64,000 nt of DNA from NCBI GenBank assembly GCA_049510745.1, contig JBEKYR010000008.1, positions 128,001-192,000 of the forward strand, in the 5' to 3' direction. Position 1 is the stretch's first letter. Each line of letters opens with the position of its first letter. The notes below the pieces were generated by a model. It worked only from the letters and a program-made list of their open reading frames with translations. It was not told the DNA's origin and made no database searches. This DNA is from Verrucomicrobiota bacterium. GTDB lineage: Bacteria > Verrucomicrobiota > Verrucomicrobiia > Limisphaerales > Palsa-1400. Below, piece after piece: positions 3,538-41,808 of the stretch. The position numbers and the translations under genes are program-made.

Positions 3538-4026
3538 TCATGGCCGCTTCTCGCGCGCAATGATCTCGCGCATCGCGGCGGTGTCCGCTTTGTCCTTGTC
3601 GCGCCAGGAGTTTTGTTTGAGATAAATCAAGTCCTCCGGCGCGAGATACGGGATGATCGCTCCGCCCGCCTGGAAGCGTCGCAAGCGGGGCCTGAAATCA
3701 TCCAGCCTTTTTTCGAGCAGGCGCGTGAAAATGTCCAAATCGAACTCCTCCACGACCCGGACGCAGCCTTCCTGCGCCAGGAAGTCTTCGGGCTTGAGTT
3801 CGCGCGCCCAGCCTTCGCCCCACCCGGCCAGGCAGTCGAGCAACTTCTGGAGGTTATCTGGTCCGTCCTGAACGAGGATGTCAGCGTCAATCGTCAAACG
3901 CGGATAGCCGTTGAGAACCACCGCCAATCCGCCGACGACGGCGAAATCAACCCCGCTTTGGGCGATTGCGACCAACAGTTTTTCGAACCGGGAAATAGTC
4001 TCCTTCGAGTTTGATAGGGGTTCCAT
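3538..4026 (-). CDS. Minimal nucleotidyltransferase (AbiEii/MNT-like), putative toxin
   Basis: FAVVGGLAV...G.PRLTIDADILV motif and LIYLKQNSWRDKDKAD C-terminus; ATG at 4026. Confidence 0.75.
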   Translation of the reverse strand: MEPLSNSKETISRFEKLLVAIAQSGVDFAVVGGLAVVLNGYPRLTIDADILVQDGPDNLQKLLDCLAGWGEGWARELKPEDFLAQEGCVRVVEEFDLDIFTRLLEKRLDDFRPRLRRFQAGGAIIPYLAPEDLIYLKQNSWRDKDKADTAAMREIIAREKRP

Positions 4027-4147
4027 GCGCGTGCTTTTTAATGAATTTCGCCAAGTCCTCCACCACGGCCAATTGCTGGGAAACCGACAACGGCCGCCCC
4101 ACAATTTTTCTGATGGGCTGCTGCATCGGCTCAAACTTGTTGTTCAC
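3947..4147 (-). CDS. Small partner protein upstream of nucleotidyltransferase
   Basis: GTG start 6 nt after TTGACG-N18-TATGGT; N-terminus (NNKFEPMQQPIRKIVGR) resembles 27352-27585 (KQPFVNLEEKIDRFVGR); overlaps the NTase start. Confidence 0.5.
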   Translation of the reverse strand: MNNKFEPMQQPIRKIVGRPLSVSQQLAVVEDLAKFIKKHAHGTPIKLEGDYFPVRKTVGRNRPKRG

Positions 4148-4289
4148 GGTTCCACCATAACCGGGGTACGGCCAGCCCGTCAACCAGACAGGCGGCAAAC
4201 CATAAACGAATCAGTGAATCGGAGAATCAGTGAATCAATGAATGGGGAAAGGCGTCCGCAAGGATGAAGGATGAAGACCCATTTCCTTT

Positions 4290-4900
4290 GACACTTGTGA
4301 GGTTTTTCGTCACTGGTCGCTGTCGCCGGATCCGGGTATTTTTTGAATTTGCATTTTTTGGCCGGATTCACTCGGATTTACCCGGATTTGGCCGGATTTT
4401 TCCGGATTTGTCCGGGTTCTTGGGTTTGTTTTCCGGGTTGAATCCGGCATTTTTTGACACTTTTAGGGGTGGTTGCCGGTGTTGACGGTGCATCGGGTCT
4501 GCGGTTGAACCGGTCCGGGATTGAGTTTTTGCGTCAAGGCTGTCCCCCGCAAATGATGGCGAATGGTGCATACGAGGGCGAACGTCCGAGGTTTGACTGG
4601 TGAGCCAATGGGACCAATCGGACCAAGGCGACGAATGGCTGATGCGACGGGAGAGGTCTCCGAGCCACGGGCCGGTGTTGACCGGGCCGCACTGAGCACT
4701 TTGCCTGTTGCATGTATCATTCATGCTGGCTCGATTTAAGCACAGGTCTATCAAGATGAAAAACCTACGGAAGGAAAATTTTTACAAAAAAAAGAGGATT
4801 TTCGCGCAGGCCCACGGACAAGCTGGCGGACAAGAGGATAGATAAGGAATTGAAAGGGGCGGAATCCCGCAAAACCGATAAAATGCGAAACTTGGTAATG
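4290..4900 (-). repeat. ~600-bp dispersed element of unknown class, copy 1 (contains 10-bp CAAATCCGG-type tandem repeats)
   Basis: Colinear blocks shared with 25855-26470, e.g. TCTATC.TCTTGTCCGCCA, TTTTCCTTCC.TAGGTTTTTC.TCTTGATA.ACCT.TGCTTAAATC.AGCCAG.ATGA, TTGACG.AAAAACTCAA, CAAAAAATG.AAATTCAAAAAATACCCGG. Confidence 0.8.
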
Positions 4901-5061
4901 CCTCAGTGAGGGCGGGAAATGCGAAATTGAGCATACCCGCATTGAAAGCCGCAATGCGGGTATGCTAGAGTCGATTCTCTCCATTTGTCAAGGAAAATGT
5001 GCAGACGGCGAAATGAGAATTTTTTAAGCTCCACTTTTTTCCGCCGTCACTGAGGCATTAC
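4895..5061. mobile_element. 167-bp MITE-like element with 25-bp TIRs
   Basis: GTAATGCCTCAGTGAGGGCGGGAAA (4895-4919) matches the reverse complement of 5037-5061 at 23/25; internal perfect 15-bp palindrome at 4930-4966. Confidence 0.7.
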
Positions 5062-5077
5062 TAGAAGAATCGGAGAG

Positions 5078-20919: not shown

Positions 20920-21005
20920 GGTAGGTTACCCAAGTGGCCAACGGGGGCAGACTGTAAATCTGCTGGCTTACGCCTTCGATGGTTCGAATCCATCACCTAC
21001 CACCA
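20920..21005 (+). tRNA. tRNA-Tyr (GTA)
   Basis: Acceptor GGTAGGT/ACCTACC+A+CCA; anticodon arm GCAGA-CTGTAAA-TCTGC; long variable arm; GGTTCGAATCC. Confidence 0.97.
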
Positions 21006-21308: not shown

Positions 21309-24300
21309 TCAGTCGGAGGTGCGATAGTAGCGATGCGGGTAAAGGCTGGCGTTGGTGTCCTTGAATTCGAACAGTCCGTAGGGAGAGGCGGTGGCGCTGC
21401 CAATGATGCTCCATCTGACCAGATCGGTGGAGGCCTCGAAGTTGTAGGTAGTTCCGGGATTTCCGGCAAATTGAATCGTCGCCTGCCCGCCGCTCACTGT
21501 GGCGCCGAGGACGGACGAGCCGTTGCTGTTGGGAGGTTCCACCAAAACCGTTACGGCTCCATTGACAGCCAGGCCGAAGGAGGGCGCGAGCACGTAGTCG
21601 AAAGAGTCCGCGCCTATGAAGGCCGGCGGCGGGCTGTAGGTGATAAAGCCGTTGGCCAGTTGCACCGCGCCGCCTTGAGTGCTGGTGGGATCGACGGAGC
21701 CGACGACGAACGAATTGGCTGGCTGAACGGCAGATGGGAGTGTGAGTTGGCCGGTGGCGATCTGGGCGGGTTCGCCCGGCGCGGTTTGCATAACGTACGT
21801 CACGAGCAGGACAGCATTGGAACTGACGGCAGACCCGGCGCTGTTGCTGGCAATCACGCTATAGCTGCCGCCGTCAGTGGGCACGACATTGGAAATGGTG
21901 AGCGAGGGCCGGTTGGGCGCGCTGGGAATAGGAAGATTGTTGACTTGCCAGTGAAAATCGGGCGGCGGCGAGCCCGTGGCGGCCACAGTGAAGCTGATGG
22001 GACTTCCTGCGACGGTGTTCTGGCTGACAGGATTGGTTAGGATGGTCGGAGAAAAGTTTGTCGGCGAGATAACGACGTCATCCAACCCCAAAGCAGAGCC
22101 AAAAGTCTCAGAGGATGTGTCGGTGAAAATAATGGCCGTGTTCGTGGTGGTCGGGGTGAAGAGAAGTCTGAAGAGGCGCCACCCGCTTCCCGACGGGACG
22201 AACGTGTTGCTGGCCAAAACCGAGCCGTCGCTTGCGAGCGCCCTGGCTGAAAGGCTGACTCCGAACGGATACCCTTCCTCCAACGCGAGGGTCATCACGT
22301 AGCTTTGGCCCACAGAGGTGGTGAAGGTTTGTTCCAAAATGCCCGCAGGATGGGTGGAGCTGTCGTAGAAATTAATCCATTGACTGCCTGAATAGGCGCC
22401 GGTCACATGTTTGAGATAGACGGCATTACTCGGGCCGCCCACCGCCCACCCAGTCAACGAGAGTTGGCCCGGCTGGATTATGCTAGACGAGCCTGAACTA
22501 AGGACCGGAACCTCAAAATCACCGTTGGTGAAGGGCAAACCGAGAACGGTGAGCTGGGCTGCCGCGCTCACTGCGCCACCGGCCAGGTTCGTCGCCGTCG
22601 CCCAATAAAAACCCGCGCTCGGGCCGGACGCCGTCAGAGTCAAATTCGTGCCGTTGGCTCCGGAAATGGCGTTGGACCCTAGCGGCGTTCCCTCAAACCA
22701 TTGAAGGACGCCCGGTCCACCACCCAATGCGATATTGAACGTGACCGAGTTTCCGGCCGCCGCTGTTTGGCTGATGGGATTAGTCATGATTTCTGGCGCG
22801 ACCAGGTTTGTCTGGACAACTAACACATCATCCAGCGCCAAATCGACCGACGTAGTTTGTGGTGAAGTGTCCGTCAAGACAATCGTCGTCTCGGTGGTGG
22901 TCGGCGTGAACAGAAATCCAAAAACGCCCCACGCGCCTGTCCCCGGTACGAATGTGTTGCTGGCCAGGATGGAGCCGTCTCCGGCCAAAGCCTTGGCCGA
23001 AAGGCTGACCTTGCCCGCAGTGCCTCCAAATTGTCTCAAGGCGAAGGTAATCTCGTAGCGTTGGCCCACTGAAGCATTGAATGTTTGCGCCAGGATTCCG
23101 CCGGGGGGACTGTTGTTGGCGTTGAAGTCAATCCATTGATTTCCCGAATACGCGGCAGCGGAATTGCTGACGACAATGTCGCCGCCCGGCCCACCGACAA
23201 TCCATCCCGTCAGCCAGGTATCACCGGGATTTAATGTTTGGCTGGAATTTGCCACGATCGTTGGCGTCTCAAAATCGCCATTGGTGAAGGACTGGCCCGT
23301 AACCGTCAACTGCGCTGCCGTGCTCACCGCTCCGCCGAGGATGTTAGTCGCTATCGCCCAATAATAACCTGCCGAGGCACCAGACGCGGTCACCGTCAGG
23401 TTCGTGTCGATGCCTCCGGTGATGGCGTTGGAGCCAATCACCGTTCCGTAAAACCATTGGACGGCAGATGGGCCGCCGCCCAAAGCAATGTTAAACATTG
23501 CCGGGCTTCCCGCCGCCGCCGTTTGGTTGACCGGACTAGTCAGGATGATGGGGGGAGCGAGGTTTGTCGCCGTGACAGCCGTGTCATCCAGCGCCATGTA
23601 CCAGGAGTTTCCTTGCGGCGAGCTGTCCGTCAATATGATGCTCGTATCTTCCGTGGTCGGCGTGAACATCAATCCAAAAAGGCGCCACGCGTTGAGCGGT
23701 GGCACAAACGTGTTGCTGGCCAAAATAGAGCCGTCGCCCGCTACAGCCGTCACAGTCAGGCTGACCTGACCCGCGGTCCCTCCAACTTGCTCCAAGGCCA
23801 GGCTTAACAACTGGCTCTGCCCAAGCGGCGCGGTGAACGTTTGCTCCAAAACGCCTCCCGTCGAAAGGTGGTAATGGAACGTGATCCATTGATTTCCCGA
23901 ATAGCCGCCGCCGGAGGAATCATTAAGGTCAACGCCACTCAAACCTGCAATGGTCCATCCCGGCAGCCCAGTGTCGCCGAGACCGATATACTGGAAATTT
24001 GGCGCGATCACAGGCGTTTCAAAATCCCCGTTGGTAAAGGGCAATCCCAGCACGGCCAATTGCGCTGTCGCACTGACCCCCGTGCCGGCGACATTTCTCA
24101 CCGTCGCCCAATAAGAGCCTGCGGTGGTGGCGGACGCAGTCACGGTCAATTCTGTCCCGATGGCTCCGGGGACGGCGTTGGTTCCAAGCGCCGAGCGGTG
24201 AAACCATTGAATCTCGCCGGGACCGCCACCCGCCTCGATGCCAAAGGTCGCCAAACTTCCCACTTCCGCAGTTTGACTGGCGGGATTGTTCAGAATGGTG

Positions 24301-25823
24301 GGCGGGGCAATGTTCGTTGGCGCGACCATGACGTCGTCCAGGGCTAAATCGACCGCCTCCGTATTTCGGGAGGTGTCCGTCAATAAAACCGTCGTGTTGG
24401 TGGTGGTCGGAGTAAAGGGCAATTCGAATACGCCCCAAGCGGTTTGCGGAACAAACGTGTTGCTGGCCAGGACTGAACCGTCGCTTGCCAGCGCCGTCGC
24501 GCAAAGGCTGACCTCGTTGCTCGGGATTCCAGACCCGCTAATTTGCAGCAACGCCAAAGTCATCACGTAGCCTTGCCCCACAGAGGTGGAGAAAGTCTGC
24601 CCTAGAATGCCTCCTGGAGCACTGTCCCCTGCGTTGAAACTGATCCATTGATTTCCCGAATAGCCGCCGGAGGAATTATTGACGTTAATGTCGCCACCCG
24701 GCCCGCCGACGATCCATCCCGTCAGCCAGGTGTCGCCGGGATTTAACGCTTCAGAAGAATTCGCCGCCAGGACCGGCGTCTCGAAATCTCCATTGGTGAG
24801 CAGTTGTCCCAGGACGGTCAACTGCGCTGGCGTACTGATGGCGGCGGCGAGGAGATTCGTTACGACCGCCCAATACCAGCCAGCGGTAACGCCAGAGGCT
24901 GTCACGGTCAGATTAGTGTCGTTGGCTCCGGCAATGGCGTTGGTGCTGATTGCGGTCTCGTAGAACCATTGCACGACACCAGGTCCCCCGCCCAGCGTGA
25001 CGTTAAACGTTGCCGAATTACCCGCGACCACCGTTTGGCTGGCCGGATTGGTCAGGATGGTAGGCGGGGCAAGGTTCGTCGCCGCAATGTCCACGTCATC
25101 CAGCGCTAGGTCAACGGCAACCGTTTGCGGCGAAGTGTCAGTCAAGACGATGGTCGTAGTGGTTGCGGTTGGCATAAACAGCAACTGAAAAATTCCCCAG
25201 GTGCCTTGCGGCGGTGTGAAAGTGTTGCTGGCAAGGACCGACCCGTCGCCCGCCAGCATCTCGGCCGAAAGGCTAACCTCGTTGGCCGACCATCCTGCGA
25301 GTTGCTGTAGTGCCAGAGACATCACGTAGAGCTGGCCAATGGCGTTGGTGAAGGTTTGCGACAAGATCCCCCCCGGAGAACTGTCGCCGCTGTTGAAAAC
25401 GATCCATTGATTTCCCGAATAGCCGCCGGAGGAATTATTGACCGTGACGTCGCCGCCCGGCCCACCAACGATCCATCCCGTCAGCCAAGTGTCGCCCGGA
25501 TTCAACGCCTGGCTGGAATTTGCCGCGATCACCGGCGTCTCAAAATCACCGTTAGTGAATGGCTGGCCGGAGGCCAACAGGCAAGCTGAAAGATAAAACG
25601 CCAGTGAAAACGACGAAGCGCGCGAAAAGGTTGAAAAAGGAATGGATGCTTGGTTGTTCGCGGCTGAGATTACTGACGTTTTCGCTTCGGTTGAGAACCT
25701 ACGGGCCGTGCAAGGCGCAACCATTCCGCACCGTTCACCTCCGGGAGGCTTGCGGAGGCCTTTTGCCGTTCGAACAGCATCTCCCCCGGAGCTTCTTTGC
25801 GTCAATCTCCCCCGCTCTTTCAT
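21309..25823 (-). CDS. Giant secreted protein: 5x (DUF642/CBM-like + Ig) repeats, Big_9-like domain and C-terminal ...RYYR domain (start uncertain)
   Basis: Five units starting (F/L)TNGDFE, each followed by PxILTNPxSQ...QW...Y Ig repeats; YSPPPAFIGADSFDY; signal-like SFSLAFYLSACLLASG. Confidence 0.8.
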   Translation of the reverse strand: MKERGRLTQRSSGGDAVRTAKGLRKPPGGERCGMVAPCTARRFSTEAKTSVISAANNQASIPFSTFSRASSFSLAFYLSACLLASGQPFTNGDFETPVIAANSSQALNPGDTWLTGWIVGGPGGDVTVNNSSGGYSGNQWIVFNSGDSSPGGILSQTFTNAIGQLYVMSLALQQLAGWSANEVSLSAEMLAGDGSVLASNTFTPPQGTWGIFQLLFMPTATTTTIVLTDTSPQTVAVDLALDDVDIAATNLAPPTILTNPASQTVVAGNSATFNVTLGGGPGVVQWFYETAISTNAIAGANDTNLTVTASGVTAGWYWAVVTNLLAAAISTPAQLTVLGQLLTNGDFETPVLAANSSEALNPGDTWLTGWIVGGPGGDINVNNSSGGYSGNQWISFNAGDSAPGGILGQTFSTSVGQGYVMTLALLQISGSGIPSNEVSLCATALASDGSVLASNTFVPQTAWGVFELPFTPTTTNTTVLLTDTSRNTEAVDLALDDVMVAPTNIAPPTILNNPASQTAEVGSLATFGIEAGGGPGEIQWFHRSALGTNAVPGAIGTELTVTASATTAGSYWATVRNVAGTGVSATAQLAVLGLPFTNGDFETPVIAPNFQYIGLGDTGLPGWTIAGLSGVDLNDSSGGGYSGNQWITFHYHLSTGGVLEQTFTAPLGQSQLLSLALEQVGGTAGQVSLTVTAVAGDGSILASNTFVPPLNAWRLFGLMFTPTTEDTSIILTDSSPQGNSWYMALDDTAVTATNLAPPIILTSPVNQTAAAGSPAMFNIALGGGPSAVQWFYGTVIGSNAITGGIDTNLTVTASGASAGYYWAIATNILGGAVSTAAQLTVTGQSFTNGDFETPTIVANSSQTLNPGDTWLTGWIVGGPGGDIVVSNSAAAYSGNQWIDFNANNSPPGGILAQTFNASVGQRYEITFALRQFGGTAGKVSLSAKALAGDGSILASNTFVPGTGAWGVFGFLFTPTTTETTIVLTDTSPQTTSVDLALDDVLVVQTNLVAPEIMTNPISQTAAAGNSVTFNIALGGGPGVLQWFEGTPLGSNAISGANGTNLTLTASGPSAGFYWATATNLAGGAVSAAAQLTVLGLPFTNGDFEVPVLSSGSSSIIQPGQLSLTGWAVGGPSNAVYLKHVTGAYSGSQWINFYDSSTHPAGILEQTFTTSVGQSYVMTLALEEGYPFGVSLSARALASDGSVLASNTFVPSGSGWRLFRLLFTPTTTNTAIIFTDTSSETFGSALGLDDVVISPTNFSPTILTNPVSQNTVAGSPISFTVAATGSPPPDFHWQVNNLPIPSAPNRPSLTISNVVPTDGGSYSVIASNSAGSAVSSNAVLLVTYVMQTAPGEPAQIATGQLTLPSAVQPANSFVVGSVDPTSTQGGAVQLANGFITYSPPPAFIGADSFDYVLAPSFGLAVNGAVTVLVEPPNSNGSSVLGATVSGGQATIQFAGNPGTTYNFEASTDLVRWSIIGSATASPYGLFEFKDTNASLYPHRYYRTSD

Positions 25824-25854: not shown

Positions 25855-26470
25855 TCATTAAATATATTTTTGAATCATATCGGTTTTTGGCGTTTTGTCC
25901 GTTGCCACTCCCTGTCTATCTTCTTGTCCGCCATAGCCTTCCGCCAGCGGAGGTCTCCCTTCGCGGCCGGGAAAAATTCTCGCGTTTTTCCTTCCATAGG
26001 TTTTTCGTCTTGATACACCTCTGCTTAAATCAAGCCAGGATGAGAAGAAAACATCTCAGAGAGAGCCGCGGATGCAGCGCCCAAGGATTTGGGCCCGCAA
26101 CGAGACACAAGGCGGGCCTGCCCGCCTTCTTGTCCGCCGTAGCTTTAGCGAAGGCGGAAGACGACAGACGCCGTCGCGTCGAACATCTCCTCGGCGTCGC
26201 GGGCGGCCCCGACGCCAACGGATTTGACGTAAAAACTCAAACCTGGTCCGGTCCAAACGCCGACATCATGAACCGCCAACACCGGAAACTGCTCCTAAGA
26301 GCCGCCAAAGAAGCCGGAATCGACCTGGAAAACGAAGTCCTGAACCCGGAGAAATCCGGACAAATCCGGACAAATCCGGACAAATCTGGCCAAATCTGGC
26401 CAAAAAATGAAAATTCAAAAAATACCCGGCCCCGACGACGACGAACGGTTACAAGAAACCTTACAAAGCT
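25855..26470 (+). repeat. ~600-bp dispersed element, copy 2 (with ORF 26040-26504)
   Basis: Homologous to 4290-4900 (reverse strand); tandem CAAATCCGGA repeats at ~26350-26400. Confidence 0.8.
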
Positions 26471-26595
26471 CGGCGCCGATGAGAGCAATTTTGACTCTGC
26501 CTGACATTTGGCGTTAAATCGTCGGGATTGAACGACACCGCTTCCCATATCGCCATGCCGGCCAGAAGGAAAACCTTGTTTCGGCCGCCCCGCCC

Positions 26596-31335: not shown

Positions 31336-34300
31336 TCATGGTTCGAGGGAGATGGCGCCGGCGTTGGTTTTGGTGACGAAAAAGCCGCCGGCATTGGTCG
31401 CGTCTTGTAAGCAGGCGCCAAAACCGGTGGTGGTCGCGTTTCCCTCGCCGTTGCCAAAAATGACTTTCAGCGCGCCCGTTTTCGGATTGATCGCGCCGCG
31501 CAGCGAATTGGCCGGGCCGGATTTGGCGATCACGGCGTTGTTGCTCAACGCGACCTGATAGGTCAGGTCGAGGCTCGCGTTGGAAATGGCCAGGGTCCCC
31601 GCCGAAAGAGGGAACGCCGCCGCGGCGGACCAGGCGGAGCCTTGCACGGAAAGGGAATTGGTGAAGCCGTTGGCGTAAATCCCCGGCCGGCCAGCGGGCT
31701 TGATCCAAACGAGGTTGGTTTCACCTTGGGGCGCCCCGCCGGCCAGGTTGATCCAGCCCAGAAGCAAGCCGGCATTGCCATAAAGGCTGGCATAGATCGG
31801 GACGTATCCTGACGGGCTGATCGGCACGGACTGGCTGAACGCCGCGCCATCGGCGAGCCTGCCGCTGAGAGTGAGATGGCCGTCGTGGTTGGTCAGCAAC
31901 GCGTAACCAAAACCCGGCGGGATGCCGGCGGCGTTGGCGGGCGGCGCCAGCAGCATCGTGTATTCGGCGGGAGAAGAGGAAGCTTCGGCCAATTCGGCCG
32001 TGAGCGCGGCGGTCCATTCCATTTCCTTCGTGCCGGAAACCGTGCCGGTGATTTCATCGTTGGTCCACTGCAACATCATTTGCACCGTCACCGGTCCGCC
32101 CCGCGCGGCGGAACGAGGGATGCGATTGCTGGCGGAACCGGAGAGGGCGAAACCGCCGTTGAGGGCGTAGGCGGAGCCGTCGAGAAGCAATCGGCCGCTG
32201 TAAACGCCGCGCGAATTGACGCTCAGATGGCTGAGCATGCCGGCCGTTTGCTCCGTGACGCCATTGGTCGCGTCGAAGAACAGGCCGCTGTAAATCCCCG
32301 CCGTGGCAATGAACGGGTTGGTGACGAAATGGGCCTGCAACGACAGGTTGGAGGCCATGACGAAGTGGAGCGGATTGGACGCGTTCGTGAACGCCCCCGA
32401 AGTCCAATTGACAAATAGATTTCCAGCGTCCGGCTTGGCGGACACCGTGTAGCCCTCGCCCAGATTGAGCAGGGCATTGCTGCCCGGACGCGCATTGCCC
32501 GCCACCGACGCGCTGCCCGAAACCGTCCCGTTTCCGTCAATGGAAAGGCCGAAGACTGACGGGACCGCGCGGAAAATCCGGCGGGTGACGACCGGAGAGA
32601 CGTGGCCGGAGTAATCCACGCTTTGGACCGCGACGATGTTCGTGCCCGGCAAAAGCGCGTTGGCAACGGACCACGCCTTTACTGTGGTCCCGTTGGTCGA
32701 GAGGAGCGCGTTGACGCCGGAGGGCTTGTTCGAGCCGGCAAAGACATTGGTAACCCAGCAGACGACATTGGTCACCTGCGCGTTGTCCGACGCCGTCCCG
32801 GAAACGGTGGAATTGGTGGTGCGCGCGCCGGGCGCGGGCGACGTAATGGCCACCGCGGGGCGGGTTTTGTCCGCAACGACCGTCAACCGGGCCACGACGC
32901 TGGTAACGCTGCGGAAAAAATTGGAAACGACGACGGAATAGCCGGCTTCGTCGCGGAAGGCGACGGGGTTGAGGGTGAGGTTGCTGGTGGCGGCGCCGTG
33001 GATTTCGTTTCCGTCGGTGAGCGCGACGCCGTTCGACCGCCATTGATAAAAGAGAGGCGGCCCGCCTGTGGCGGCGACACGGAAGGTGACCACCCCGCCC
33101 TCCGGCCGGTTGAGTTTGGCGGACGGCTGGACCTTGATGGCGGGCGCAATGGGGAGGGCCAGGACCGCCACCGAACTGGTGGCCGCGCCGTCCAGAAGGG
33201 AGGGGCTGACAACCACCTGGTAATCGCCCTCGTCCGCCGGGTTGACCGTTTTGACGGTGAGCGCGCCGCGGTTCGCGCCGGAGAAACTCGCATTGTCATA
33301 TATATTTGTGCCGCCAAGCTGCCATTGGTAGCCCAGGGCGTTCGGGTCGCCGGCGTGGTTCGTGGCAGTGACGGAGAACGTAACCGCCAGCCCGAGCGGG
33401 CTGATCTGGCCGGCGGGCTGGCTCGTGATGGAAGGAGGGCCGATATTGGCCTTGACTGTGAGCAGGCGGGCGCTGGACTCGAACGCCCCGGCGGAGGCGG
33501 GGGTCCCTCGCGGCATTTGCCGGGCGTCAAAGGCGGGGAAAGAGAGGCCGGGAACGCCAGCCACCGCCCCTGCGGCCGGGCCGCCATCCAGGACGGCCAG
33601 CGTCAACATGGCGAAGCCCGCGACGTTGGTGGGGCCAAGGGCGGGGCCGCCGTTGGTGGAGGAGAGCGTCGGAGCCAGGCCCGGGTCGGTGTAAGCGACA
33701 GTGGTCGAGGTGGCCGCGGCCAGGCTGCCGTCCGAGTTGATGTTGTAGCCGGCATCGGTGACCCCGGCTGCGTTGGGGGAGGGATTGGGTGTCAGAGTGG
33801 CGCCGCCGGAGAGAATGGAGTTGGCCAACCGCAGCGCGCCGGCGCTTCCGCAAATGTCCCAACCTGACGTCTGCCCCGCCGCGCCATTGGCTCCCTGAAC
33901 GCCCGAAGCGGTTCCGCCGGCGCCGCCCGCCAGAGTGTTCGTGGCCAGCGTGCAATTGCGCGCCACGGCCAAAACCGCCGCGCTCGCCAATCCGCCGCCG
34001 GCCGCCGGGCCGCCATCGCCCGCCCGCGCCTTTTGGCCGGCCGCAGCGCCGCCGGCGCCTCCGGCGCAGGAGTTGTTGAGAAAGGTGGTGTTTTCAATTT
34101 CGGCGTTTGTCACGCCGCCGTCGAGATAAAGTCCGCCGCCGGCCGCCGGGCCGCCGGCCAGTCCATCCGAGCCGGTTCCGTCGCTGAAGACCTGGCCGGG
34201 ACCGCTGGCGCCCGCGGTGACAGAATTGGTGTAAAAAAGGCAGCCGGACATGGACAACGACGTTGTCACATAAACCGCGCCTCCGCGAGCCAGGCCGCCG

Positions 34301-35088
34301 AACCCGCCGGACCCGGTGTTGCCCGACGAGTAGAGGCCCTGGCCGGCTGCGCCGCCCGCTCCACCCGAACCGGCGAAGCATTCGTTGCCGATGAATTCGG
34401 TGGCCACGAAGACGTTGCCGTTGCCGCTGCTGAAAACGGCCCCGCCCATCGCGCCGCCCCCGTTGCCGCCGTTGCCCCCGTTGCCGCTGAAGACAAATGT
34501 GCCCGTGCCGGCGCCGCCGCTGCCGCCAGCGCCGGCGATCACGGCGTTGGTTCCGAAGACGCAGTAGTAAAGGCTGACCGGACCGAGGCTGAAAATGGCG
34601 CCGCCCGCCGCGCCGCCGCCGCCGCCGCCATCGCTGCCGTTGCCGCTGCCGGGGTCAGCCGCTCCATCGGCGCCACTGGCGTTGGTGGCGGCGTTGCCGG
34701 ACAGGACGCTATTGCTGACAATGAGAGCGCCTTCATTGAAGACGGCGCCGCCGTTGATGCCGATGCCGTTGAGCAGTTGAAGATTGTTCAGGATCAGCCG
34801 GCAGTTGGGATGGACGTGGATGATCCGCGCCGCGCGCTGGCCGTTGATGACGACGCCATTGGTCCCACCGTCGATTTCCACGTTGTTCGAAATCTGCAAC
34901 GTCTGCCCCGCGGCCAGGGTGATGACCGAGCCGCTGAGGAAATTGGTGAGGCAACTGGAGGAGGCCAGGGCGTTGGTGAGAGAAGTGTAATTGGAGATGA
35001 GAATTTGCCCGCAGGCGACGCGGCCGGCCAACGGCAGCAGGGCGGCGGGCAGCAGCAGTCGAACAATTCTTTTCCAGGGCATCTCCAT
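31336..35088 (-). CDS. Giant secreted Gly-rich beta-helix + Ig-domain protein, paralog B
   Basis: Signal peptide, GGA.F Gly-rich repeats, two Ig domains, C-terminal GIYSGLF domain. Confidence 0.8.
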   Translation of the reverse strand: MEMPWKRIVRLLLPAALLPLAGRVACGQILISNYTSLTNALASSSCLTNFLSGSVITLAAGQTLQISNNVEIDGGTNGVVINGQRAARIIHVHPNCRLILNNLQLLNGIGINGGAVFNEGALIVSNSVLSGNAATNASGADGAADPGSGNGSDGGGGGGAAGGAIFSLGPVSLYYCVFGTNAVIAGAGGSGGAGTGTFVFSGNGGNGGNGGGAMGGAVFSSGNGNVFVATEFIGNECFAGSGGAGGAAGQGLYSSGNTGSGGFGGLARGGAVYVTTSLSMSGCLFYTNSVTAGASGPGQVFSDGTGSDGLAGGPAAGGGLYLDGGVTNAEIENTTFLNNSCAGGAGGAAAGQKARAGDGGPAAGGGLASAAVLAVARNCTLATNTLAGGAGGTASGVQGANGAAGQTSGWDICGSAGALRLANSILSGGATLTPNPSPNAAGVTDAGYNINSDGSLAAATSTTVAYTDPGLAPTLSSTNGGPALGPTNVAGFAMLTLAVLDGGPAAGAVAGVPGLSFPAFDARQMPRGTPASAGAFESSARLLTVKANIGPPSITSQPAGQISPLGLAVTFSVTATNHAGDPNALGYQWQLGGTNIYDNASFSGANRGALTVKTVNPADEGDYQVVVSPSLLDGAATSSVAVLALPIAPAIKVQPSAKLNRPEGGVVTFRVAATGGPPLFYQWRSNGVALTDGNEIHGAATSNLTLNPVAFRDEAGYSVVVSNFFRSVTSVVARLTVVADKTRPAVAITSPAPGARTTNSTVSGTASDNAQVTNVVCWVTNVFAGSNKPSGVNALLSTNGTTVKAWSVANALLPGTNIVAVQSVDYSGHVSPVVTRRIFRAVPSVFGLSIDGNGTVSGSASVAGNARPGSNALLNLGEGYTVSAKPDAGNLFVNWTSGAFTNASNPLHFVMASNLSLQAHFVTNPFIATAGIYSGLFFDATNGVTEQTAGMLSHLSVNSRGVYSGRLLLDGSAYALNGGFALSGSASNRIPRSAARGGPVTVQMMLQWTNDEITGTVSGTKEMEWTAALTAELAEASSSPAEYTMLLAPPANAAGIPPGFGYALLTNHDGHLTLSGRLADGAAFSQSVPISPSGYVPIYASLYGNAGLLLGWINLAGGAPQGETNLVWIKPAGRPGIYANGFTNSLSVQGSAWSAAAAFPLSAGTLAISNASLDLTYQVALSNNAVIAKSGPANSLRGAINPKTGALKVIFGNGEGNATTTGFGACLQDATNAGGFFVTKTNAGAISLEP

Positions 35089-35095
35089 CGCCGGA

Positions 35096-38000
35096 TCACG
35101 GTTTCAATGAGATGAAGCCGGCGTTGGTTTTGGTGACGAAGTAGCCGCCGGCATTGGTCGCATCCTGCAAAAGGGCGGCGTAACCGGTCGTGGTCGCTTT
35201 GCCCTCGCCGTTGCCAAAGATGAGTTTTATCGCGCCCGTTTTCAGATTGATTGTTCCGCGCAAGGAATTGGCCGGGCCTGATTCCGCGACCACCAGGTTG
35301 TTGTCGAAAGAAACCCGGTTTGTCAAGTAAAGGCTGGCATTGGAAATGGTCAAGGTCCCGGCGGTCAGAGGCAGCGCGGCGTCAGCCAGCCAGGCGGAGC
35401 CCTGCACGGAAAGCGAGTTGGTGAAACCGTTGGTGTAAATCCCCGCCGCGGCGGCGGGCTTGATCCACGTGAAGTTGGTTTCACCCTGGGGCGTCCCGTT
35501 GGTCAGGCTGATCCAGCCCAGGAGCAGGCCGGCATTGTGGTAGAGGCTGGCGAACACGGGCACGTTCCCCAACTTTCCAATCGGCACGCTTTGGCTGAAA
35601 GCGGCGCCGTCGGGCAGCGCGCCCGCGAGGGTGAGATAACCAAGGTGGTTGGTCAGAAGCACGTAACCGTAGCCGGGCGGAACCTCGCCGACAACGTTGG
35701 TGGACGGCGGCAGCAGCACGGTGTATTGGCCGGAAACGGCCAACGGGGCCGCCCCCTCCTCGGCACACAGCGCGGATTCCCACCCGCCTTCATTGGTCCC
35801 GGAGACGCTGCCGAGAATCTGATGGTTGGTCCATCCCACCGCCATCACCACGCTCACCGGCCCGCCCCGCGCGGCCGCGCGGGCAATGTGATTGCTGGCA
35901 TGGCCGAAAATGTCAAAGACACCGCCGAGGGAATAAGTGGCGCCGTCGAGCAGGAGTTTGCCGCTGAACCGGCCGAGCGAACCGAGCGTCAGATGGCTGA
36001 TCAGGCCGGCGGTATGCTCGGTGAGGGCCTTGTTGGTCGGGAAAAAGAGTCCGTTGTAAACACCCGCCACCGCCATGAACGGGCTGGGCACAAAATTGGC
36101 CTGGATCGACAAATTGGGGGTCATGACGAAGTGAAGGATGTTGCCGTTGCTGGTGAAGCCGGGCGAAGTCCAGTTTGTCAACAAATAACCCTGGCCCGGC
36201 GTGGCCGACAAAGTGTAGCCCTCGGTCAGATTGAGTTGGGCGCCGTTGGTGGGCCGCGCGCCCCCCGGAGCCGAGGCGCTGCCCGCCACACTCCCTTTTC
36301 CAGTGATGGAAAACGCAAAGGGAGACGGTACGGCGTAAAAGAACTTGCGGACGACAATCGGGGAAACGTTGCTCGAATAATCGACGCTTTGCACCGCGAC
36401 CATGTTCGTGCCCGGGAAAAACGCATTGGTGAGGCTGGTCCACGTCTTTTTGGTCGTTCCATTGGTGGAAAGAACCGCGGAGGTGACGAGGTTCGTGCCC
36501 AGGAAGAAATTGGTTGCCGAGACAGAGACGTTGGTGACCTGGGCGTTGTCCGAAGCCGTGCCGGAAATGACCGCATTGGTGGAGCGCGCCCCGGGGGCGG
36601 GCGAGGTGATCGTCACGGTGGGGGGGGTGGTGTCCGCCTTGACAGTCAACCGGGCCACAACACTGGTGACGCTGCGATAGTAATTGCCCACCACCACGGT
36701 GTAACTGGCCGCATCCTGGAAGGTAACGGGGTTGATGGTGAGGTTGCTGGTGGCGGAGCCGGAGAATTCATTGCCGTCGGTGAGCGCGACCTCGTTGCTC
36801 CGCCATTGAAAAGAAAAAGGCGGCGCGCCGCCGACCTTGACTTTGAAGGTCACCACCGCGCCGTACGGCTCATTGAGTTTGCTGGACGGCTGGGTTCGAA
36901 TGGAGGGGGGAATCTTCACCAGGAGGTAGGCATTGGAGCTGACGGCCTCGCTGTCCAGGAGGGACGGGCTGACGACCACGCGGTAGGCGCCCAGGTCCGC
37001 CGCGCTGATGTCTTTGACGGTCAGAGTGTTGCTGGTGGCGCCGGCAAAACTCGCGTTGTCAATTAGATTTGCGCCGTTAAGCTGCCACTGATACCCCAGG
37101 GGGTTCGGATCACCGGAGTTCGCCACGGCGGTGACGCTGAAGTGAGCGGCGGCCCCGACCCTGGCCGTTTGGTTTGTCGGTTCACTGATGGTGGCCGGAG
37201 CGGTTTCGTAAACAGTGATGCCATTCACTTCAAAGGCGCCCACACTGCCCGGCGTTCCTCTGGGTGCGCCCCGCTCATCGGTGGCCGGGAAGGTCAGGCC
37301 CGGCACGCCTGGAATTGCGTTAGTCGCCGGGCTTCCAGCGATCACCTGCAGTGTCAGCATCGGAGGCCCGGCGCCGTTGGCGGGGCCAAGCGCGAACCCG
37401 CCATCGGCGGTCAAGCCCGCATCCAATCCGGGATTGGCGCTGTTGCGGGTGGTGGAGGTGGACTTGGTCGGGCTGGCATCCGAACTGATGTTGTAACCGG
37501 CGTCGGTGACGCCAACCGCGTTGGAACTCGCCCCGCCCGAAAGAATCGAGTTGGCCAACCGCACCACACCGGCGCTGCAATAAATTTGCCAACCGTTTGT
37601 GCTTCCTTCCAGGCCGTTGACGCCGTTGGTGCCGGAGTCGGAGCCGAAGGTTCCGGGGTCCAGCGTGTTTGTGGCCAGGGTGCAATTGCGGATCATCGCC
37701 GCCGCCGCGCCCGAGAAGATTCCGCCGCCATAAACCGCGCCGCCATTGCCGGCAATGGTCGAAGCTCCCGCTGCGGGGCCGCCGGGGCCGCCCACGCACA
37801 GGTTCCCGAAGAATATGGTGTTTTCAATGTCAGCCGTCGGCGCCGAGTTCGAGAGATAAATCCCGCCCCCGCCGGCCGGAGCGCCGGCAATCCCGTTGGC
37901 GCCGGTGCCATCCGCCAGGAGTTGGGCCGCGCCGCTGCCGCCGCCGACGGCAACGTTATTGAAAAACAGGCAATCGGCCACGAACAACGACCCCGTGGCA

Positions 38001-38857
38001 TAAAGGCCGCCCCCCGCCGCCGCGCCGCCGCCCGCGCCCTGGCCGGAGGCGCCATTGCCGGTGGACAACGCTCCCACGCCGCCCGAGCCGCCCGAGCCGC
38101 CCGAGCCGGCGACGCAGTTGTTGCTGATGAATTCGGTGGCAAAGAAAACATTGCTGTTGCCGGTGCTCATCACGGCCCCCCCGAAAGCCCCGCCCCCCGC
38201 GCCGCCATTGCCGCCGTTGCCGGCGAAACTGCTGTTGGCGCCGTTGCCGCCGATGCCCCCGGAGCCGGCCAAGGCTTGGTTGGTCAGAAACACCGAGAAG
38301 TAAACGCTGACAGGTCCGTGGCTGTAGATGGCGCCGCCCAAGGCGCCGCCCCCGCCCGCCGCGTCCGTTCCGGCGAGGCCGCTGTTGGTGGCGGCGTTGA
38401 TGCCGTTGGTGCCGTTGAAATTGGTGGCGGAGTTGCCCGCGATGATGGCGTTGCTGATGATCAGGGTGCCTTCGTTGAAAATGGCGCCGCCGCCGCCATT
38501 GGTGCTGAGGCCGCGCAACAGTTGAACGTTGTTGAGCACCAACCGGGCGTTGGGATTGACGTGAAACAACCGAAAGAGATTGTTTCCATCAATCACAACA
38601 GTATTGGTCGTGCCGTCGATCATGACGTCGTTCGTGATCTGCAACGTCGGGTAGTTGGGCGTCAAATTGATCACGGCTGTGCCGGCAAAATTGGTGATGA
38701 CGGGGGAGGAGGAGGATTGAATCGCGGCGTTGAGAGAGGTGTAGTTGGACACCACGATGGCCTGCCCGCAAGCGATCCATCCCAGAAAAGGGAGCAGCGT
38801 GGCGAGCGGCAGCAGAACCCGCCTGGGCGGAATAAACCTTTTCAAGAGCGTCTCCAT
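35096..38857 (-). CDS. Giant secreted Gly-rich beta-helix + Ig-domain protein, paralog A
   Basis: Start METLLKR at 38857 (upstream part of the ORF is antisense to the GT gene); colinear with 31336-35088 to the C-terminus (FVTKTNAG.ISL.P). Confidence 0.8.
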   Translation of the reverse strand: METLLKRFIPPRRVLLPLATLLPFLGWIACGQAIVVSNYTSLNAAIQSSSSPVITNFAGTAVINLTPNYPTLQITNDVMIDGTTNTVVIDGNNLFRLFHVNPNARLVLNNVQLLRGLSTNGGGGAIFNEGTLIISNAIIAGNSATNFNGTNGINAATNSGLAGTDAAGGGGALGGAIYSHGPVSVYFSVFLTNQALAGSGGIGGNGANSSFAGNGGNGGAGGGAFGGAVMSTGNSNVFFATEFISNNCVAGSGGSGGSGGVGALSTGNGASGQGAGGGAAAGGGLYATGSLFVADCLFFNNVAVGGGSGAAQLLADGTGANGIAGAPAGGGGIYLSNSAPTADIENTIFFGNLCVGGPGGPAAGASTIAGNGGAVYGGGIFSGAAAAMIRNCTLATNTLDPGTFGSDSGTNGVNGLEGSTNGWQIYCSAGVVRLANSILSGGASSNAVGVTDAGYNISSDASPTKSTSTTRNSANPGLDAGLTADGGFALGPANGAGPPMLTLQVIAGSPATNAIPGVPGLTFPATDERGAPRGTPGSVGAFEVNGITVYETAPATISEPTNQTARVGAAAHFSVTAVANSGDPNPLGYQWQLNGANLIDNASFAGATSNTLTVKDISAADLGAYRVVVSPSLLDSEAVSSNAYLLVKIPPSIRTQPSSKLNEPYGAVVTFKVKVGGAPPFSFQWRSNEVALTDGNEFSGSATSNLTINPVTFQDAASYTVVVGNYYRSVTSVVARLTVKADTTPPTVTITSPAPGARSTNAVISGTASDNAQVTNVSVSATNFFLGTNLVTSAVLSTNGTTKKTWTSLTNAFFPGTNMVAVQSVDYSSNVSPIVVRKFFYAVPSPFAFSITGKGSVAGSASAPGGARPTNGAQLNLTEGYTLSATPGQGYLLTNWTSPGFTSNGNILHFVMTPNLSIQANFVPSPFMAVAGVYNGLFFPTNKALTEHTAGLISHLTLGSLGRFSGKLLLDGATYSLGGVFDIFGHASNHIARAAARGGPVSVVMAVGWTNHQILGSVSGTNEGGWESALCAEEGAAPLAVSGQYTVLLPPSTNVVGEVPPGYGYVLLTNHLGYLTLAGALPDGAAFSQSVPIGKLGNVPVFASLYHNAGLLLGWISLTNGTPQGETNFTWIKPAAAAGIYTNGFTNSLSVQGSAWLADAALPLTAGTLTISNASLYLTNRVSFDNNLVVAESGPANSLRGTINLKTGAIKLIFGNGEGKATTTGYAALLQDATNAGGYFVTKTNAGFISLKP

Positions 38858-38944
38858 AGCGTTAGTTTGATAACAGACTGTTGGTTGCGGATAAACAACA
38901 TTCCTTGGAAAAGGTTTCGCTCCGGTCGCGCCCATACTGGCCGC

Positions 38945-40609
38945 ATGAAGCTGTTTTACACATCCCCGATGAAGTGGAAAGAGCCGGGCACGGCCGGGGC
39001 GCTCTTGCTGCTCACGCTGGCGACGCTGGGCTGTCTGATGCCGTTCCTGGACAAGGCGGTTCACATGGACGATCCGCTCTTTATCTGGACGGCGCGCCAA
39101 ATCCGGTCGCACCCGCTGGATTTTTACGGCTTCCCGGTCGAGTGGGACAGGGCGGAGTTGCCCATGGCCGTCGTGATGCAGAATCCGCCGTTGACGGGCT
39201 ACTATCTGGCAGCGGTCGGCTCGGTGCTCGGCTGGAGCGAGAGCGCGCTGCATTTCGGGTTTCTCCTGCCGGCTTTGGCCCTGGTGCTGGGCGTGTACTT
39301 CCTGGCCCGGAACTTCTGCCGTCATCCGGCGGCGGCGGCTTTGGCGACCCTCGCAACGCCGGTCTTTCTGGTCTCCAGCACGAGCCTGATGTGCGATACG
39401 ATGATGACGGCGCTGTGGGTTTGGGCGATATTCTTCTGGATGGAGGGGCTTCGCCGGCAATGCGCGCTTCGTTTGTTCTTGGCGGCGCTGCTGATCGCGG
39501 CCAGCAGCCTGACAAAATACTTTGGCGTGTGCCTGGTTCCGCTCTTGTTCGTTTATGCGGCGATGCAACAACGCCGTCTGGGCGCGTGGCTGGCCTGTCT
39601 GGGTTTGCCCGTTCTTGTTCTGGCCGGCTATCAGGCTGTAACTTATCGCCTGTACGGAACGGCACTGCTGACCAATGCGGCTGCCTATGCCACCACGCTG
39701 CGGGTGGGAGGCGGGCTGACGGCGAAGCTCCTGCCGGCTCTGGCGTTTACCGGCGGATGCGTCTTCATTTCTCTGGCGGCCGCGCCGCTGCTCTGGGGCA
39801 GGAAAGGCCTGGCCCTCTGCGGCGCCGGCGTGGTCGCGCTGGGGTTGCTCCTCGCCGGGCTTAAGCAGGTGGGGGCATTTTCCCTCATCGACGCCGGGCA
39901 TGTGAAATGGCTGGTGCTGGTGCAAATCGCGGTCTTTGTCTGCGGCGGCGCGTTGATCTTCATCCTGGCGGCGGCGGACGTGTTCGCTCGCAGGGACGCG
40001 GCCTCGGTGCTTTTGTTGCTTTGGACGGCCGGCACGTTTGTCTTTGTTTGGGCGGTGAACTGGACGATTTCGGGCCGCAATATCCTGCCTTTGGCGCCGG
40101 CGGTTTCTTTCTTGCTCATCCGCCGCCTGGAGTCGCAGGCCCCGGCGGAGCGCCCGGAGGAAATCGGCCTGTTGTGGGGGCCGTTGGGCCTCTCGTTGGC
40201 CGTCGGCTTGGCGGTGGCATGGGGCGACTGGAAACTGGCCGATTCGGCGCGGACCGCCGCCTTTGCGCTTCAACAACCATCCGGCCCGCGCTCCGGCAGG
40301 ATGCGATTCGAGGGCCACTGGGGATTTCAGTACTACATGCAACTGCTCGGGGCCAGGGCCGTCAGTGTGACGCACCCGGACTTGGTCTCCAACGAATTGA
40401 TCGTCGTGCCGCTCAATAACACCCATTTGTTTCGACTGCCCGGCGACCGGATCGAGACGGTGTTCCAGTACCATGGCGCCGCCGCCGGCTGGGTGACCCT
40501 GATGAGTGCCGCCGCGGGCGCCGGCTACTATTCGGACGCTTGGGGGCCGGCGCCGTTTGTCTTCGGCCCGGCGCCGACCGAAGATTACGTTCTGTTCCAT
40601 GTCAAATAG
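38945..40609 (+). CDS. GT-C fold glycosyltransferase (ArnT/PMT, GT39/83-like)
   Basis: HMDDPLF, NPPL, MCD, LTKY motifs and many TM helices; ATG at 38945. Confidence 0.75.
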
Positions 40610-40661
40610 GGACTGAAATTGGCGGTTGGCGGAGGGCGGTTGATTCAGTATCTTCAAGGGC

Positions 40662-41808
40662 ATGTTCGAGAAGATCATTGACCAGTTGCCCGCCGCCGCC
40701 GAAAAAGTTGCCCACCTGCGGAGGTTTCTTTGACGTGCCCAGCGTGCAGAAGCGCCTGGCGGAACTGGACGCTTTGATGGCCCAGGAAAACTTCTGGAAC
40801 AACCGCGAAAAGGCGCAGGGCCTCATCGACGAGGCCAACGGCCTGCGCAAAAGGATCGAACCCATCCTCAAAGCCGAGCGGCAAATCGACGATTTTCGCG
40901 TCATGCTTGAACTGGCCCAAGCGGAGCCGCTGGCCGAGCAGGCCAAACACGACGCGGAAATGGGACAGGAGTTGACCCGCTTTTGCCGGGACCTGGAGAG
41001 CCTGGAATTGAAGGTTTTTCTCAACGGCCCGCATGACAAGAACAATTGCATCCTGGGCATCAACGCCGGCGCCGGGGGCACCGAGGCCTGCGATTGGGCG
41101 GAGATGCTCCTGCGCATGTACCAGCGCTGGGGCGAAGCGCGCGGCTGGGAAATGGAATTGACCGACGTGCTGCCCGGTGAAACCGCCGGCCTCAAAAGCG
41201 CCACGCTCCTGGTGCGCGGCGATTACGCCTACGGCTTTTGCAAGGCCGAGCGCGGCGTCCATCGCCTGGTGCGCATTTCCCCCTTCGACTCCAACAAGCG
41301 CCGCCACACCAGTTTTGCCAGCGTGGACGTGATCGCGGAGATCGAGGAAACCAGCGCGGACATCGTCCTGCCCCCGGCCGAGTTGCAGGTCGATACCTAC
41401 CGTTCCGGCGGCAAGGGCGGGCAGAACGTCAACAAAGTGGAGACGGCCGTGCGCATCACCCACCTGCCGACCGGGATTGTGGCCGCCTCGCAAAGCCAGC
41501 GCTCGCAACACCAGAACCGCGCCACCGCCATGCGCCTGTTGATCTCCAAAATCTACGCCAAACGGCTGGACGAACAAAAGGCCGAGCTGGAGCGGTTCTA
41601 CGGCGAGAAAGGCGCCATCGCCTGGGGCCATCAGATTCGCAGCTACGTCTTCCAGCCTTACCGCATGGTCAAGGACCTGCGCACCGGCGCCGAAACCAGC
41701 AACACCCAGGCGGTGATGGACGGCGACCTCGACCCGTTCGTCAACGCCTGGCTCCGGGCCGGCTGCCCGGCCAAACGCCTGGCGGGAGTGAAGGACGACG
41801 CGGATTAA
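40662..41808 (+). CDS. prfB: Peptide chain release factor 2 with programmed +1 frameshift
   Basis: ORF1 MFEKII...RRFL then CTT-TGA-C (40728-40734) with GGAGG just upstream; ORF2 has SPF and GGQ motifs. Confidence 0.96.

Follow-up and report, generated by a model that had tools for sequence, protein, structure and literature searches.

Short dispersed repeats in a Verrucomicrobiota genome as probable remnants of an orphan Mu gp27-like small-terminase cassette and candidate packaging-start signals

Two short stretches, referred to here as copy 1 and copy 2, of a 64,000-nucleotide window of the genome of a Verrucomicrobiota bacterium are very probably internally deleted copies of an orphan small-terminase (terS) cassette of the Mu gp27 type, as judged from their alignment to a longer parent cassette in the same genome. 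The family to which they belong is non-autonomous, satellite-like DNA in which the frame, the promoter, and a 10-bp array are kept while the protein sequence is barely constrained. These cassettes could well act in cis as packaging-start signals for a host-kept, GTA-like particle system derived from Mu.

The Two Copies and Their Parent Cassette

An earlier note, made from the letters of the window, had described six ordered blocks, (i) to (vi), in both copies, and these are confirmed in place and orientation, with the 3′ blocks of the two copies aligning well above chance (E 5e-50).

Block (i), leader match: 4871-4880 (copy 1), 25878-25887 (copy 2)
Block (ii), 55-nt block with ATG at its end: ATG at 4724-4722 (copy 1), 26040-26042 (copy 2)
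Block (iv), DxKTQ codons: 4521-4535 (copy 1), 26226-26240 (copy 2)
Block (v), 10-bp array: 4360-4419 (copy 1), 26342-26401 (copy 2)
Block (vi), A6 tail: 4345-4359 (copy 1), 26402-26416 (copy 2)

The following features of copy 1 (minus strand) and copy 2 (plus strand) can be placed.

4825..4900, minus: copy 1, AT-rich upstream leader (block i)
4764..4774, minus: copy 1, dyad CCTTCCGTAGG, then a T-tract; predicted activator site of a late-type promoter
4734..4744, minus: copy 1, extended -10-like element TGTGC-TTAAAT, hexamer 24 nt after the dyad
4368..4724, minus: copy 1, ORF of 118 aa, leader fused in frame to the terS C-terminal extension
4420..4540, minus: copy 1, block (iv), C-terminal extension of a gp27-like terS gene
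4360..4419, minus: copy 1, 10-bp array, 6 units, A-tracts in helical phase
4290..4359, minus: copy 1, tail with A6 tract, AAAAATACCCGG, and inverted half-dyad GACGAAAAACCT at 4295-4307
25860..25945, plus: copy 2, upstream leader (block i) and start of a REP-like palindrome (25926)
25990..26030, plus: copy 2, late-type promoter block with dyad (25990-26000), T-tract, and -10-like element (26020-26030)
26040..26504, plus: copy 2, ORF of 154 aa, parent leader fused to terS residues ~171-248
26132..26160, plus: copy 2, REP-like palindrome at the deletion junction (~26157)
26157..26416, plus: copy 2, 3′ part including the array (26342-26401) and A6 tail

The block (i) leader of copy 1 is common to six copies of the element and one lone site. 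The middles of the two copies (block iii) had been called non-homologous, which is true of copy 1 against copy 2 but not of the family, in which both middles have matches: the middle and ORF of copy 1 are 80-93% identical across 17 copy-1-type copies, and the middle of copy 2 corresponds, at 73% over 168 nt, to the leader in the long parent cassette. The ORF of copy 1 stops within the array and that of copy 2 reads through it, as had been seen, but slippage is not the cause, the stop having been lost by a base change with the array at 60 nt in both copies. No inverted repeats are found at the termini, in agreement with the earlier description, but a 12-bp inverted match exists internally (between AGGTTTTTCGTC in the 5′ block and, in most copies of the copy-1 type, the complementary sequence in the tail), which is degenerate in copy 2, shows no covariation, and is embedded in repeated sequence extending past the match. 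No terminator-like site is present on the element's own strand within either copy.

The parent cassette is carried on another contig of the same genome (G000).

G000:C8:69001-70008: parent cassette, comprising the 5′ block, a leader of 55 codons, a gene of 248 aa, and the 10-bp array of copies 1 and 2

Copy 2 is this cassette minus its middle, both ends being alignable (5′ end 73% over 168 nt; 3′ end 91% over 260 nt, G000:C8:69735-69994), and its deletion junction coincides with the REP-like palindrome. All other copies match parent residues ~173-248, with block (iv) of copy 1 showing 48% amino acid identity over 75 aa to the parent (G000:C8:69225-69968). The N-terminal DNA-binding domain and the helical core are missing in copies 1 and 2, where only parent residues ~171-248 are kept. 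A longer autonomous copy carrying a recombinase or a reverse transcriptase had been suggested as something to look for; the long parent has neither and encodes a terminase subunit.

The assignment of the parent as a putative Mu gp27-like small terminase rests mainly on gene order. Its family is large (2468 clusters at E<=0.001), with matches in 20 of 24 same-family genomes and multiple copies in relatives. Among viral-contig homologs, the large-terminase gene (TerL) starts <=1.5 kb downstream in 73 of 75, and a TerL match accompanies 2 of 25 chromosomal orphan terS loci. A homolog in a relative (G031), linked to the parent family at 98.9%, stands in gp25-gp26-gp27 order and matches both PF11985 (E 6.9e-6, 27 bits vs a cut-off of 28) and PHROG 426; 10 of 90 homologs match PF11985, and three paralogs match PHROG 426 at E ~0.002. 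The parent protein itself matches neither PF11985 nor PHROG 426, a Foldseek search with it places a DUF3486 protein at rank 2 (prob 0.95, with a weak E of 0.085, none reaching E<=0.001), and the gp27-like protein of G031 has no match in GenBank phages by tblastn. Block (iv) lies beyond the usual end of gp27 and is a subfamily-specific extension, predicted in the parent as a hairpin plus helix (pLDDT ~90). A match of the blocks to a known gene family would have spoken against the earlier reading, and such a match is present in part, the block (iv) family being linked to Mu gp27/DUF3486-like terS genes.

In Mu, the packaging signal is located at the genome end and not in gp27. The pac site of P22 is located in terS, and the C-termini of TerS bind TerL in lambda and P22 (PMC9611059). 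The island that spans TerL to the parent terS (G000:C8:64300-70030, L018) is flanked by a 25-bp direct repeat that includes the -35-like sequence upstream of the gene gap.

Size and Make-up of the Repeat Family

Two copies had been counted in the window; BLAST of the whole of G000 (5.6 Mb, 85 contigs, 94% complete) raises this to ~25 short copies. The 5′ and 3′ blocks are paired at 20 places, made up of 17 elements of the copy-1 type, copy 2, one long 1-kb parent, and one element with another array, while the 5′ block occurs alone at six places and the 3′ block alone at 11, of which seven have the same array type; short copies with the CAAATCCGG-type block number 25. The copies are not assembly artefacts, because in run X1 the summed contig depth is 430-700 over the main repeat blocks vs 22-36 over most unique flanks (~20-30x flank depth), and nine independently assembled metagenome loci that contain the 28-nt pattern each agree with a filled site of G000 at 99.6-100% identity. 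At the DNA level the element is lineage-specific, since a search with copy 1 among 40 relatives returned two weak matches only. Pfam and PHROG scans assigned the short ORFs to no family, and searches of the open literature for this system and its repeats turned up no description of such elements.

The view of a non-autonomous dispersed element holds as a description. The ends are ragged and modular, without the terminal inverted repeats of a MITE or IS and without target-site duplication, the longest shared word being 5.5 nt in own flanks vs 5.2 nt in unrelated flanks (19 elements, with ends set by the extent of the repeat only). No joint skipping copy 1 or copy 2 was detected in eight runs, the contigs of which break at repeats, and no new insertion was seen in the runs examined. 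Likewise, neither an integrase, nor a replication module, nor excision as a unit, such as would mark a PICI, was found in or beside either copy or the parent.

A Predicted Late-Type Promoter with Coupled Leader ORFs

In G000, both the portal and the packaging operon are also preceded by the element's 5′ block, as are an orphan TerL and two terS genes. A 41-column promoter matrix, derived unsupervised from the portal-upstream DNA of 10 relatives, nine of which had the motif, finds its top G000 match at the packaging operon on C10; 20 of the top 21 matches are element 5′ blocks (23 distinct sites in the top 45), with that of copy 2 at rank 5 genome-wide. In a 20-kb locus of G011 with a contiguous Mu-like late operon, the best match lies 125 nt before the first late gene; in the G010 and G031 loci no match is found at the late-operon start, and the exact promoter pattern occurs in none of the viral contigs. 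Before its late operon, the Mu-like prophage of G010 carries a perfect inverted repeat of a different kind (L113:11948-11972, 9-bp arms and a 5-bp spacer).

The layout consists of a dyad (ideally AAAAACCTAC-N-GTAGGTTTTT) followed by TGTG-n-TNWAAT, with the hexamer 24 nt after the dyad, a spacing that is identical in copy 1 and before the portal and packaging operons. The dyad centre, taken from the sequence, falls at ~-42. Late promoters of Mu have a -10 but no -35 and a dyad centred at -43.5 (PMC2582627). The block here shares the architecture of the Mu C-type late promoters, with a -10 that has no spaced -35, a dyad near -43, and a position upstream of late operons, and so resembles, by prediction, an activator-dependent late promoter. 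A search for a Mor/C-family activator (PF08765) gave 0 matches at E<=1 in G000, 94% complete, with the control positive in 9 of 14.

The first start codon, 6-10 nt past the -10, opens a leader ORF. At five of five G000 sites this ORF either shares the frame of the phage gene or terminates where that gene begins; in relatives, the ends of all the leaders (15-49 aa; five parsed of nine loci) overlap the portal start in an ATGA. We infer that the transcript would be near-leaderless and that its first ORF would serve to deliver ribosomes. The promoter block is the best-conserved part of the element (0.95-0.97). It is not obligatory, since some copies of the 3′ block and several full terS genes have ordinary sigma70-like promoters instead; seven copies are without the late-type promoter.

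A second promoter module, TTGCA...TGTGTCATATT...TTTGACATAAAG, is present at 13 G000 sites (e.g., C10:38157, C25:17337, and C62:8770), many of them joined to CAAATCGTGC arrays and three to the 3′ block of the copies. By eye, the bases just upstream of the portal dyad (AAAAATCGTGCC-like; L056, L060, L062, L063, and L067) resemble a unit of one 10-bp array family, hinting that the 10-bp arrays may have arisen from the upstream A-tract region of the promoter.

A Frame Kept Open with Little Constraint on the Protein, and an Array of Fixed Length

Among the 17 ORFs of the copy-1 type, omega is 0.83 (halves 0.77 and 0.90; other frames 0.87-1.14), and the parent motif W-x-G-P survives in one of 17, so that the small-protein family proposed earlier finds no support. 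The frame itself is kept: the start codon is present in 17 of 17 copies (one as GTG), six of seven distinct gap events are multiples of 3 and one shifts the frame, and no new in-frame stop is observed vs 8.4 sites simulated, with 0 of 1000 runs giving none. For the other five frames the simulation gives too many stops (37 sites vs 25 observed), and ~5.7 is therefore the fairer expectation. Four of the in-frame gaps are 9-nt repeat units. In this combination of an open frame with little amino-acid selection, the ORF is like the leader ORFs coupled to the same promoter elsewhere.

Of the 24 copies in which the array was measured, 21 have a length of exactly 60 nt, seven rows not being measurable by pattern, and array length is thus not tuned by 10-bp slippage, as had been supposed. 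Its A-tract phasing lies above the 99.9th percentile of the genome (99.99th for copy 1).

Parallel Amplification in Relatives and Arrays Elsewhere

An exact variant of the dyad is amplified in relatives, with 70 sites in the congener G002, 45 matches in G046, 28 in G004, and one in G041 (four of 31 genomes), the reversed-dyad controls being 0 in G002, G046, and G004. The copies of G002 consist of the dyad, N-terminal remnants of terS (many of 43 codons, others with a frameshift), and a 10-bp array of another sequence. The dyad is present at 11 of 11 G002 loci fetched by protein match and the array at nine of nine dyad-picked G002 loci with enough sequence, a count confined to G002, since the orientation in G046 and G004 was chosen to favour matches. 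By sequence comparison, G002 has independently amplified the predicted promoter together with a different piece of terS and a different 10-bp array, and the common denominator across lineages is the putative promoter plus the array, not the protein part.

Of 23 chromosomal terS loci in relatives, which as kin are not independent, 13 have a 10-bp array nearby, not always downstream; the corresponding figures are 0 of 75 viral terS loci, one of 18 portal loci, and 91 of 1657 G000 windows. Being absent from all 75 viral terS loci, the array is not an inherited phage pac site. Genome-wide, G000 holds 102 ten-bp arrays of several sequence families, 82 of them with A/T tracts; the first eight contigs have 40, vs 0 after shuffling.

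Mu-like Particle Genes Kept by the Host

The Mu-like genes of G000 are distributed over three contigs as follows.

G000 C23: Mu-like head-tail operon without terminase
G000 C10: packaging operon, lipoprotein-lipase-gp26-like-TerL
G000 C3 (L117:6679-8612): repressor-like HTH gene and, divergent from it, a MuB remnant and an intact Gam

Additional orphan TerL/terS pairs are present, and the same gene order is contiguous in the Mu-like regions of G010 and G011. A Mu portal is matched in 14 of 24 same-family genomes, as a single match in 12. Between the repressor-like gene and the MuB remnant and Gam (L117:6679-8612) there is no MuA gene; searched against G000, the G010 prophage's putative MuA and MuB reach E values of 1.5 and 0.55 at best, and the search with PF02914 (Pfam MuA) is blank in G000, its control being silent too. 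The host has kept conserved phage structural genes without replication or integration genes, as expected of a GTA helper, in a genome that is 94% complete. In genus g7, all four genomes have many terS copies and none of these four has a portal match. A CRISPR-like repeat array lies near a partial portal match in G021 (L068).

Placement, Neighbours, and Turnover

The link to accessory DNA noted for the two copies holds family-wide. In 16 of 21 cases codon use is closer to that of the host in the 4 kb downstream than in the 4 kb upstream (Wilcoxon p 0.002), with a null of 50.6% in 959 control gaps. From their protein starts, inspected by eye, we take the upstream neighbours to resemble restriction-modification, toxin-antitoxin, and transposase genes and the downstream ones housekeeping genes. 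Copy 2 ends ~15 nt before a DUF554 promoter region conserved in G001 and G002; these congeners share the promoter from ~26485 on and have DNA upstream that is unrelated in each. Copy 1 is one module of a repeat stack upstream of a nucleotidyltransferase (NTase) gene and parC, upstream of which relatives carry other genes. A clean pre-insertion allele is accordingly lacking for both. Repeats unrelated to this family are also stacked at sites of this type, and the placement at island edges may for that reason be general. The strict sigma70 pattern occurs downstream of 4 of 26 elements vs 51 of 875 random gaps, the cases being few.

Several further features surround the copies in the window. Directly upstream of copy 1 lies a ~170-bp dispersed module (4891-5063, minus) with TTGACA-18-TAGCAT and a hairpin, which has 14 G000 matches at E<1e-15, other copies likewise ending just before promoter-like sequence. 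Between the tail of copy 1 and the NTase genes (4143-4290, minus) are heptamer-type repeats (CCTTCAT, ATTCACTG) and further repeats in a C-rich, G-poor segment that could suit Rho termination. The DUF6036 nucleotidyltransferase gene and a small upstream ORF (3538-4198, minus) are inserted before parC. On the other side, a 1504-aa Ig/DUF642/CBM surface protein (21309-25823, minus) is encoded between tRNA-Tyr (20920-21005) and copy 2, and two further Ig-repeat genes are located at 31336-40678.

The copies exchange sequence, as evidenced by a recombination signal among 17 of them, in which incompatibility rises with distance (P 0.0065). In run X2, the depth over 169 nt of copy 2 (26168-26336) is doubled without any sequence differences, whereas the parent in G000 departs from copy 2 there at nine sites, which suggests, for this one run, a strain-specific conversion. 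The parent's 18 alleles, seen at the 3′ end of copy 2 in run X8, are not counted, as the switch falls in a 37-nt identical stretch and may reflect an assembly chimera; a replication-strand bias (18/24 and 13/17, p 0.049) is left uncounted as well, because the skew flips within contigs and the islands are themselves skewed. Retro-copying was rejected, the single reverse transcriptase being unlinked and the copies including sequence upstream of the predicted start; the only G000 reverse transcriptase match (L121, G000:C25:47912-48577) is unlinked to the elements. Site-specific recombination at the split dyad was also rejected, the spacers differing and the G002 tails having no half-site by eye.

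Model of Transfer and Alternative Explanations

In the model favored here, in which the cassettes act as packaging starts, an activator of the particle genes would also fire the cassette promoters, and ribosomes would translate the open frame as far as the array, keeping the transcript going to the bent DNA, where TerS and TerL supplied in trans would begin headful packaging. Accessory DNA from the flank would thereby enter a new cell with the cassette at its edge, and recombination, at host genes and at other copies of the repeat, would fix it there and also mix modules between copies. Precedents exist in the terS-borne pac site of P22 (PMC9611059) and in the pseudo-pac sites of SaPIs, which direct one-way packaging of linked genes (PMC6687093). 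The model builds on the origin by deletion, the number of copies, the motif common to the packaging and head-tail operons, the open frame with its weak protein constraint, the phased array of fixed length, the polarity of the flanks, and the expansions in relatives. Several findings weigh against it: the viral terS loci have no array, the packaging signal of Mu is outside gp27, the parent protein has no match to PF11985 or PHROG 426, no Mor/C-family activator and no empty site or new insertion was found, ordinary promoters serve some copies, genus g7 combines many terS copies with no portal match in four genomes, and unrelated repeats occupy similar sites. A broader and tentative reading would make these elements a new class of mobile DNA: half a kilobase in length, with no transposase, integrase, or reverse transcriptase, and spreading as the preferred packaging start of a domesticated Mu-derived GTA. 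Island edges would then be launch points for the one-way transfer of defence and accessory genes, and the signal would be a DNA shape, i.e., phased A-tracts reached by a transcribed and translated leader, reinvented in each lineage.

The main rival is a selfish or neutral spread of terS-cassette repeats without any packaging, either by HUH/Y1 (RAYT-type) transposases in trans or by recombination between short repeat modules stacked upstream of host promoters, with gene conversion homogenizing the copies. It is considered rather unlikely, even though the seven Y1_Tnp (PF01797) matches in G000 would provide RAYT-type transposases, the REP-like palindrome at the deletion junction of copy 2 and the ragged, modular ends without target duplication are in keeping with it, and so are the recombination signal in the 17 copies, the unvaried doubled segment of copy 2 in run X2, and the abundance of terS copies in genomes without a portal match. 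However, a strict REP pattern is found <=300 nt upstream of only 3 of 26 5′ blocks, the ends are not precise, hairpin-defined ones with an inverted REP doublet, and such spread leaves unexplained why promoter, open frame, and array length are kept and why the same parts were retained independently in G002. The elements might instead be portable late promoters kept by the host, which would place neighbours under the particle activator or soak up that activator so as to damp the particles, the frame carrying transcription onward. That the promoter block is the best-conserved part and scores like true operon promoters, that the next downstream gene is co-oriented in 20 of 27 cases, and that both copies are free of terminator-like sites on their own strand would agree with this. 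Yet ~58% co-orientation is expected from gap classes alone, downstream genes often have promoter-like sequence of their own (for DUF554 conserved in relatives), seven copies have no such promoter, and the array would be superfluous, all of which makes this explanation improbable.

It is highly doubtful that the products are the point, i.e., that ~120-aa proteins with the TerS C-terminal extension serve as TerL decoys or adaptors, perhaps against incoming Mu-like phages. The universal start codon, the absence of new stops, the six of seven gap events in multiples of 3, the confidently predicted hairpin plus helix of the parent extension, and the TerL binding of TerS C-termini in lambda and P22 (PMC9611059) could be read in this way, but omega is 0.77-0.90 in both halves, W-x-G-P is lost in 16 of 17 copies, four of the in-frame gaps are simply 9-nt repeat units, and what remains of terS in the copies of G002 is the opposite end, in many cases out of frame. 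A structured non-coding RNA, another of the earlier proposals, is extremely improbable: two of 16 windows do fold more stably than shuffled sequence (z of -2.9 in the array region and -3.6 on the reverse strand), but there is no Rfam match, the windows show 0-1 compensatory pairs each and a structure conservation index of 0.05-0.75, and the 12-bp inverted match does not covary.

Should the packaging-start model be correct, an abundant peat and soil lineage would possess Mu-derived gene transfer with multiplying address labels that choose which chromosomal DNA is packaged, and the question of random, host-directed, or cheat-exploited packaging in GTA-like systems would become directly testable. 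Without packaging, terS debris still accounts for many of the unannotated repeats in these genomes, a large class, and for their short "hypothetical proteins", and a late-promoter motif with coupled leader ORFs becomes available for finding the regulon.

Comparison with Known Systems

The parent family is homologous to Mu gp27/DUF3486 (PF11985, PHROG 426) of transposable phages, in which it directly precedes TerL in 73 of 75 viral loci. In contrast to these, the genes described here are chromosomal orphans, often after TerL or alone, they have the C-terminal extension and the 10-bp array, the latter absent from viral loci, and copies 1 and 2 are without the N-terminal domain. The promoter block is similar to the late promoters of Mu (Plys, PI, PP, and Pmom, with activator C) in having a -10 without a properly spaced -35, a dyad centred at ~-42 to -43, and a position before lysis/packaging and head operons. 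It differs from them in the sequence of the dyad, in that no Mor/C-family gene was found in G000, and in the amplification of the motif to 26-70 chromosomal sites.

MITEs and REPINs are non-autonomous dispersed repeats, and the elements here are like them short, non-autonomous, intergenic, and present in tens of copies with lineage-specific bursts. Unlike them, they show no terminal inverted repeats, target duplication, or REP doublet at both ends, they derive from a terminase gene and not from a transposase, and they have a promoter and an open frame.

As in the multi-locus GTAs represented by RcGTA (PMC5026251), head, tail, and packaging genes are split over loci, and the genes are mostly single-copy and conserved across genera, with no transposase match found. 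The system here differs from RcGTA in its Mu-like ancestry and its Verrucomicrobiota host, and its particles are putative. GTAs by definition package DNA near-randomly, whereas dedicated, dispersed, terS-derived cassettes would bias packaging. In that, the cassettes come closest to the terS-pac hijacking of SaPIs and other PICIs (PMC6687093), with which they share additional terS genes and sites in the chromosome from which linked accessory genes would be packaged in one direction; in contrast to SaPIs and PICIs, the cassettes are ~0.5 kb in size, with no integrase, replicon, or excision unit, and their helper is resident and, by gene content, non-infectious.
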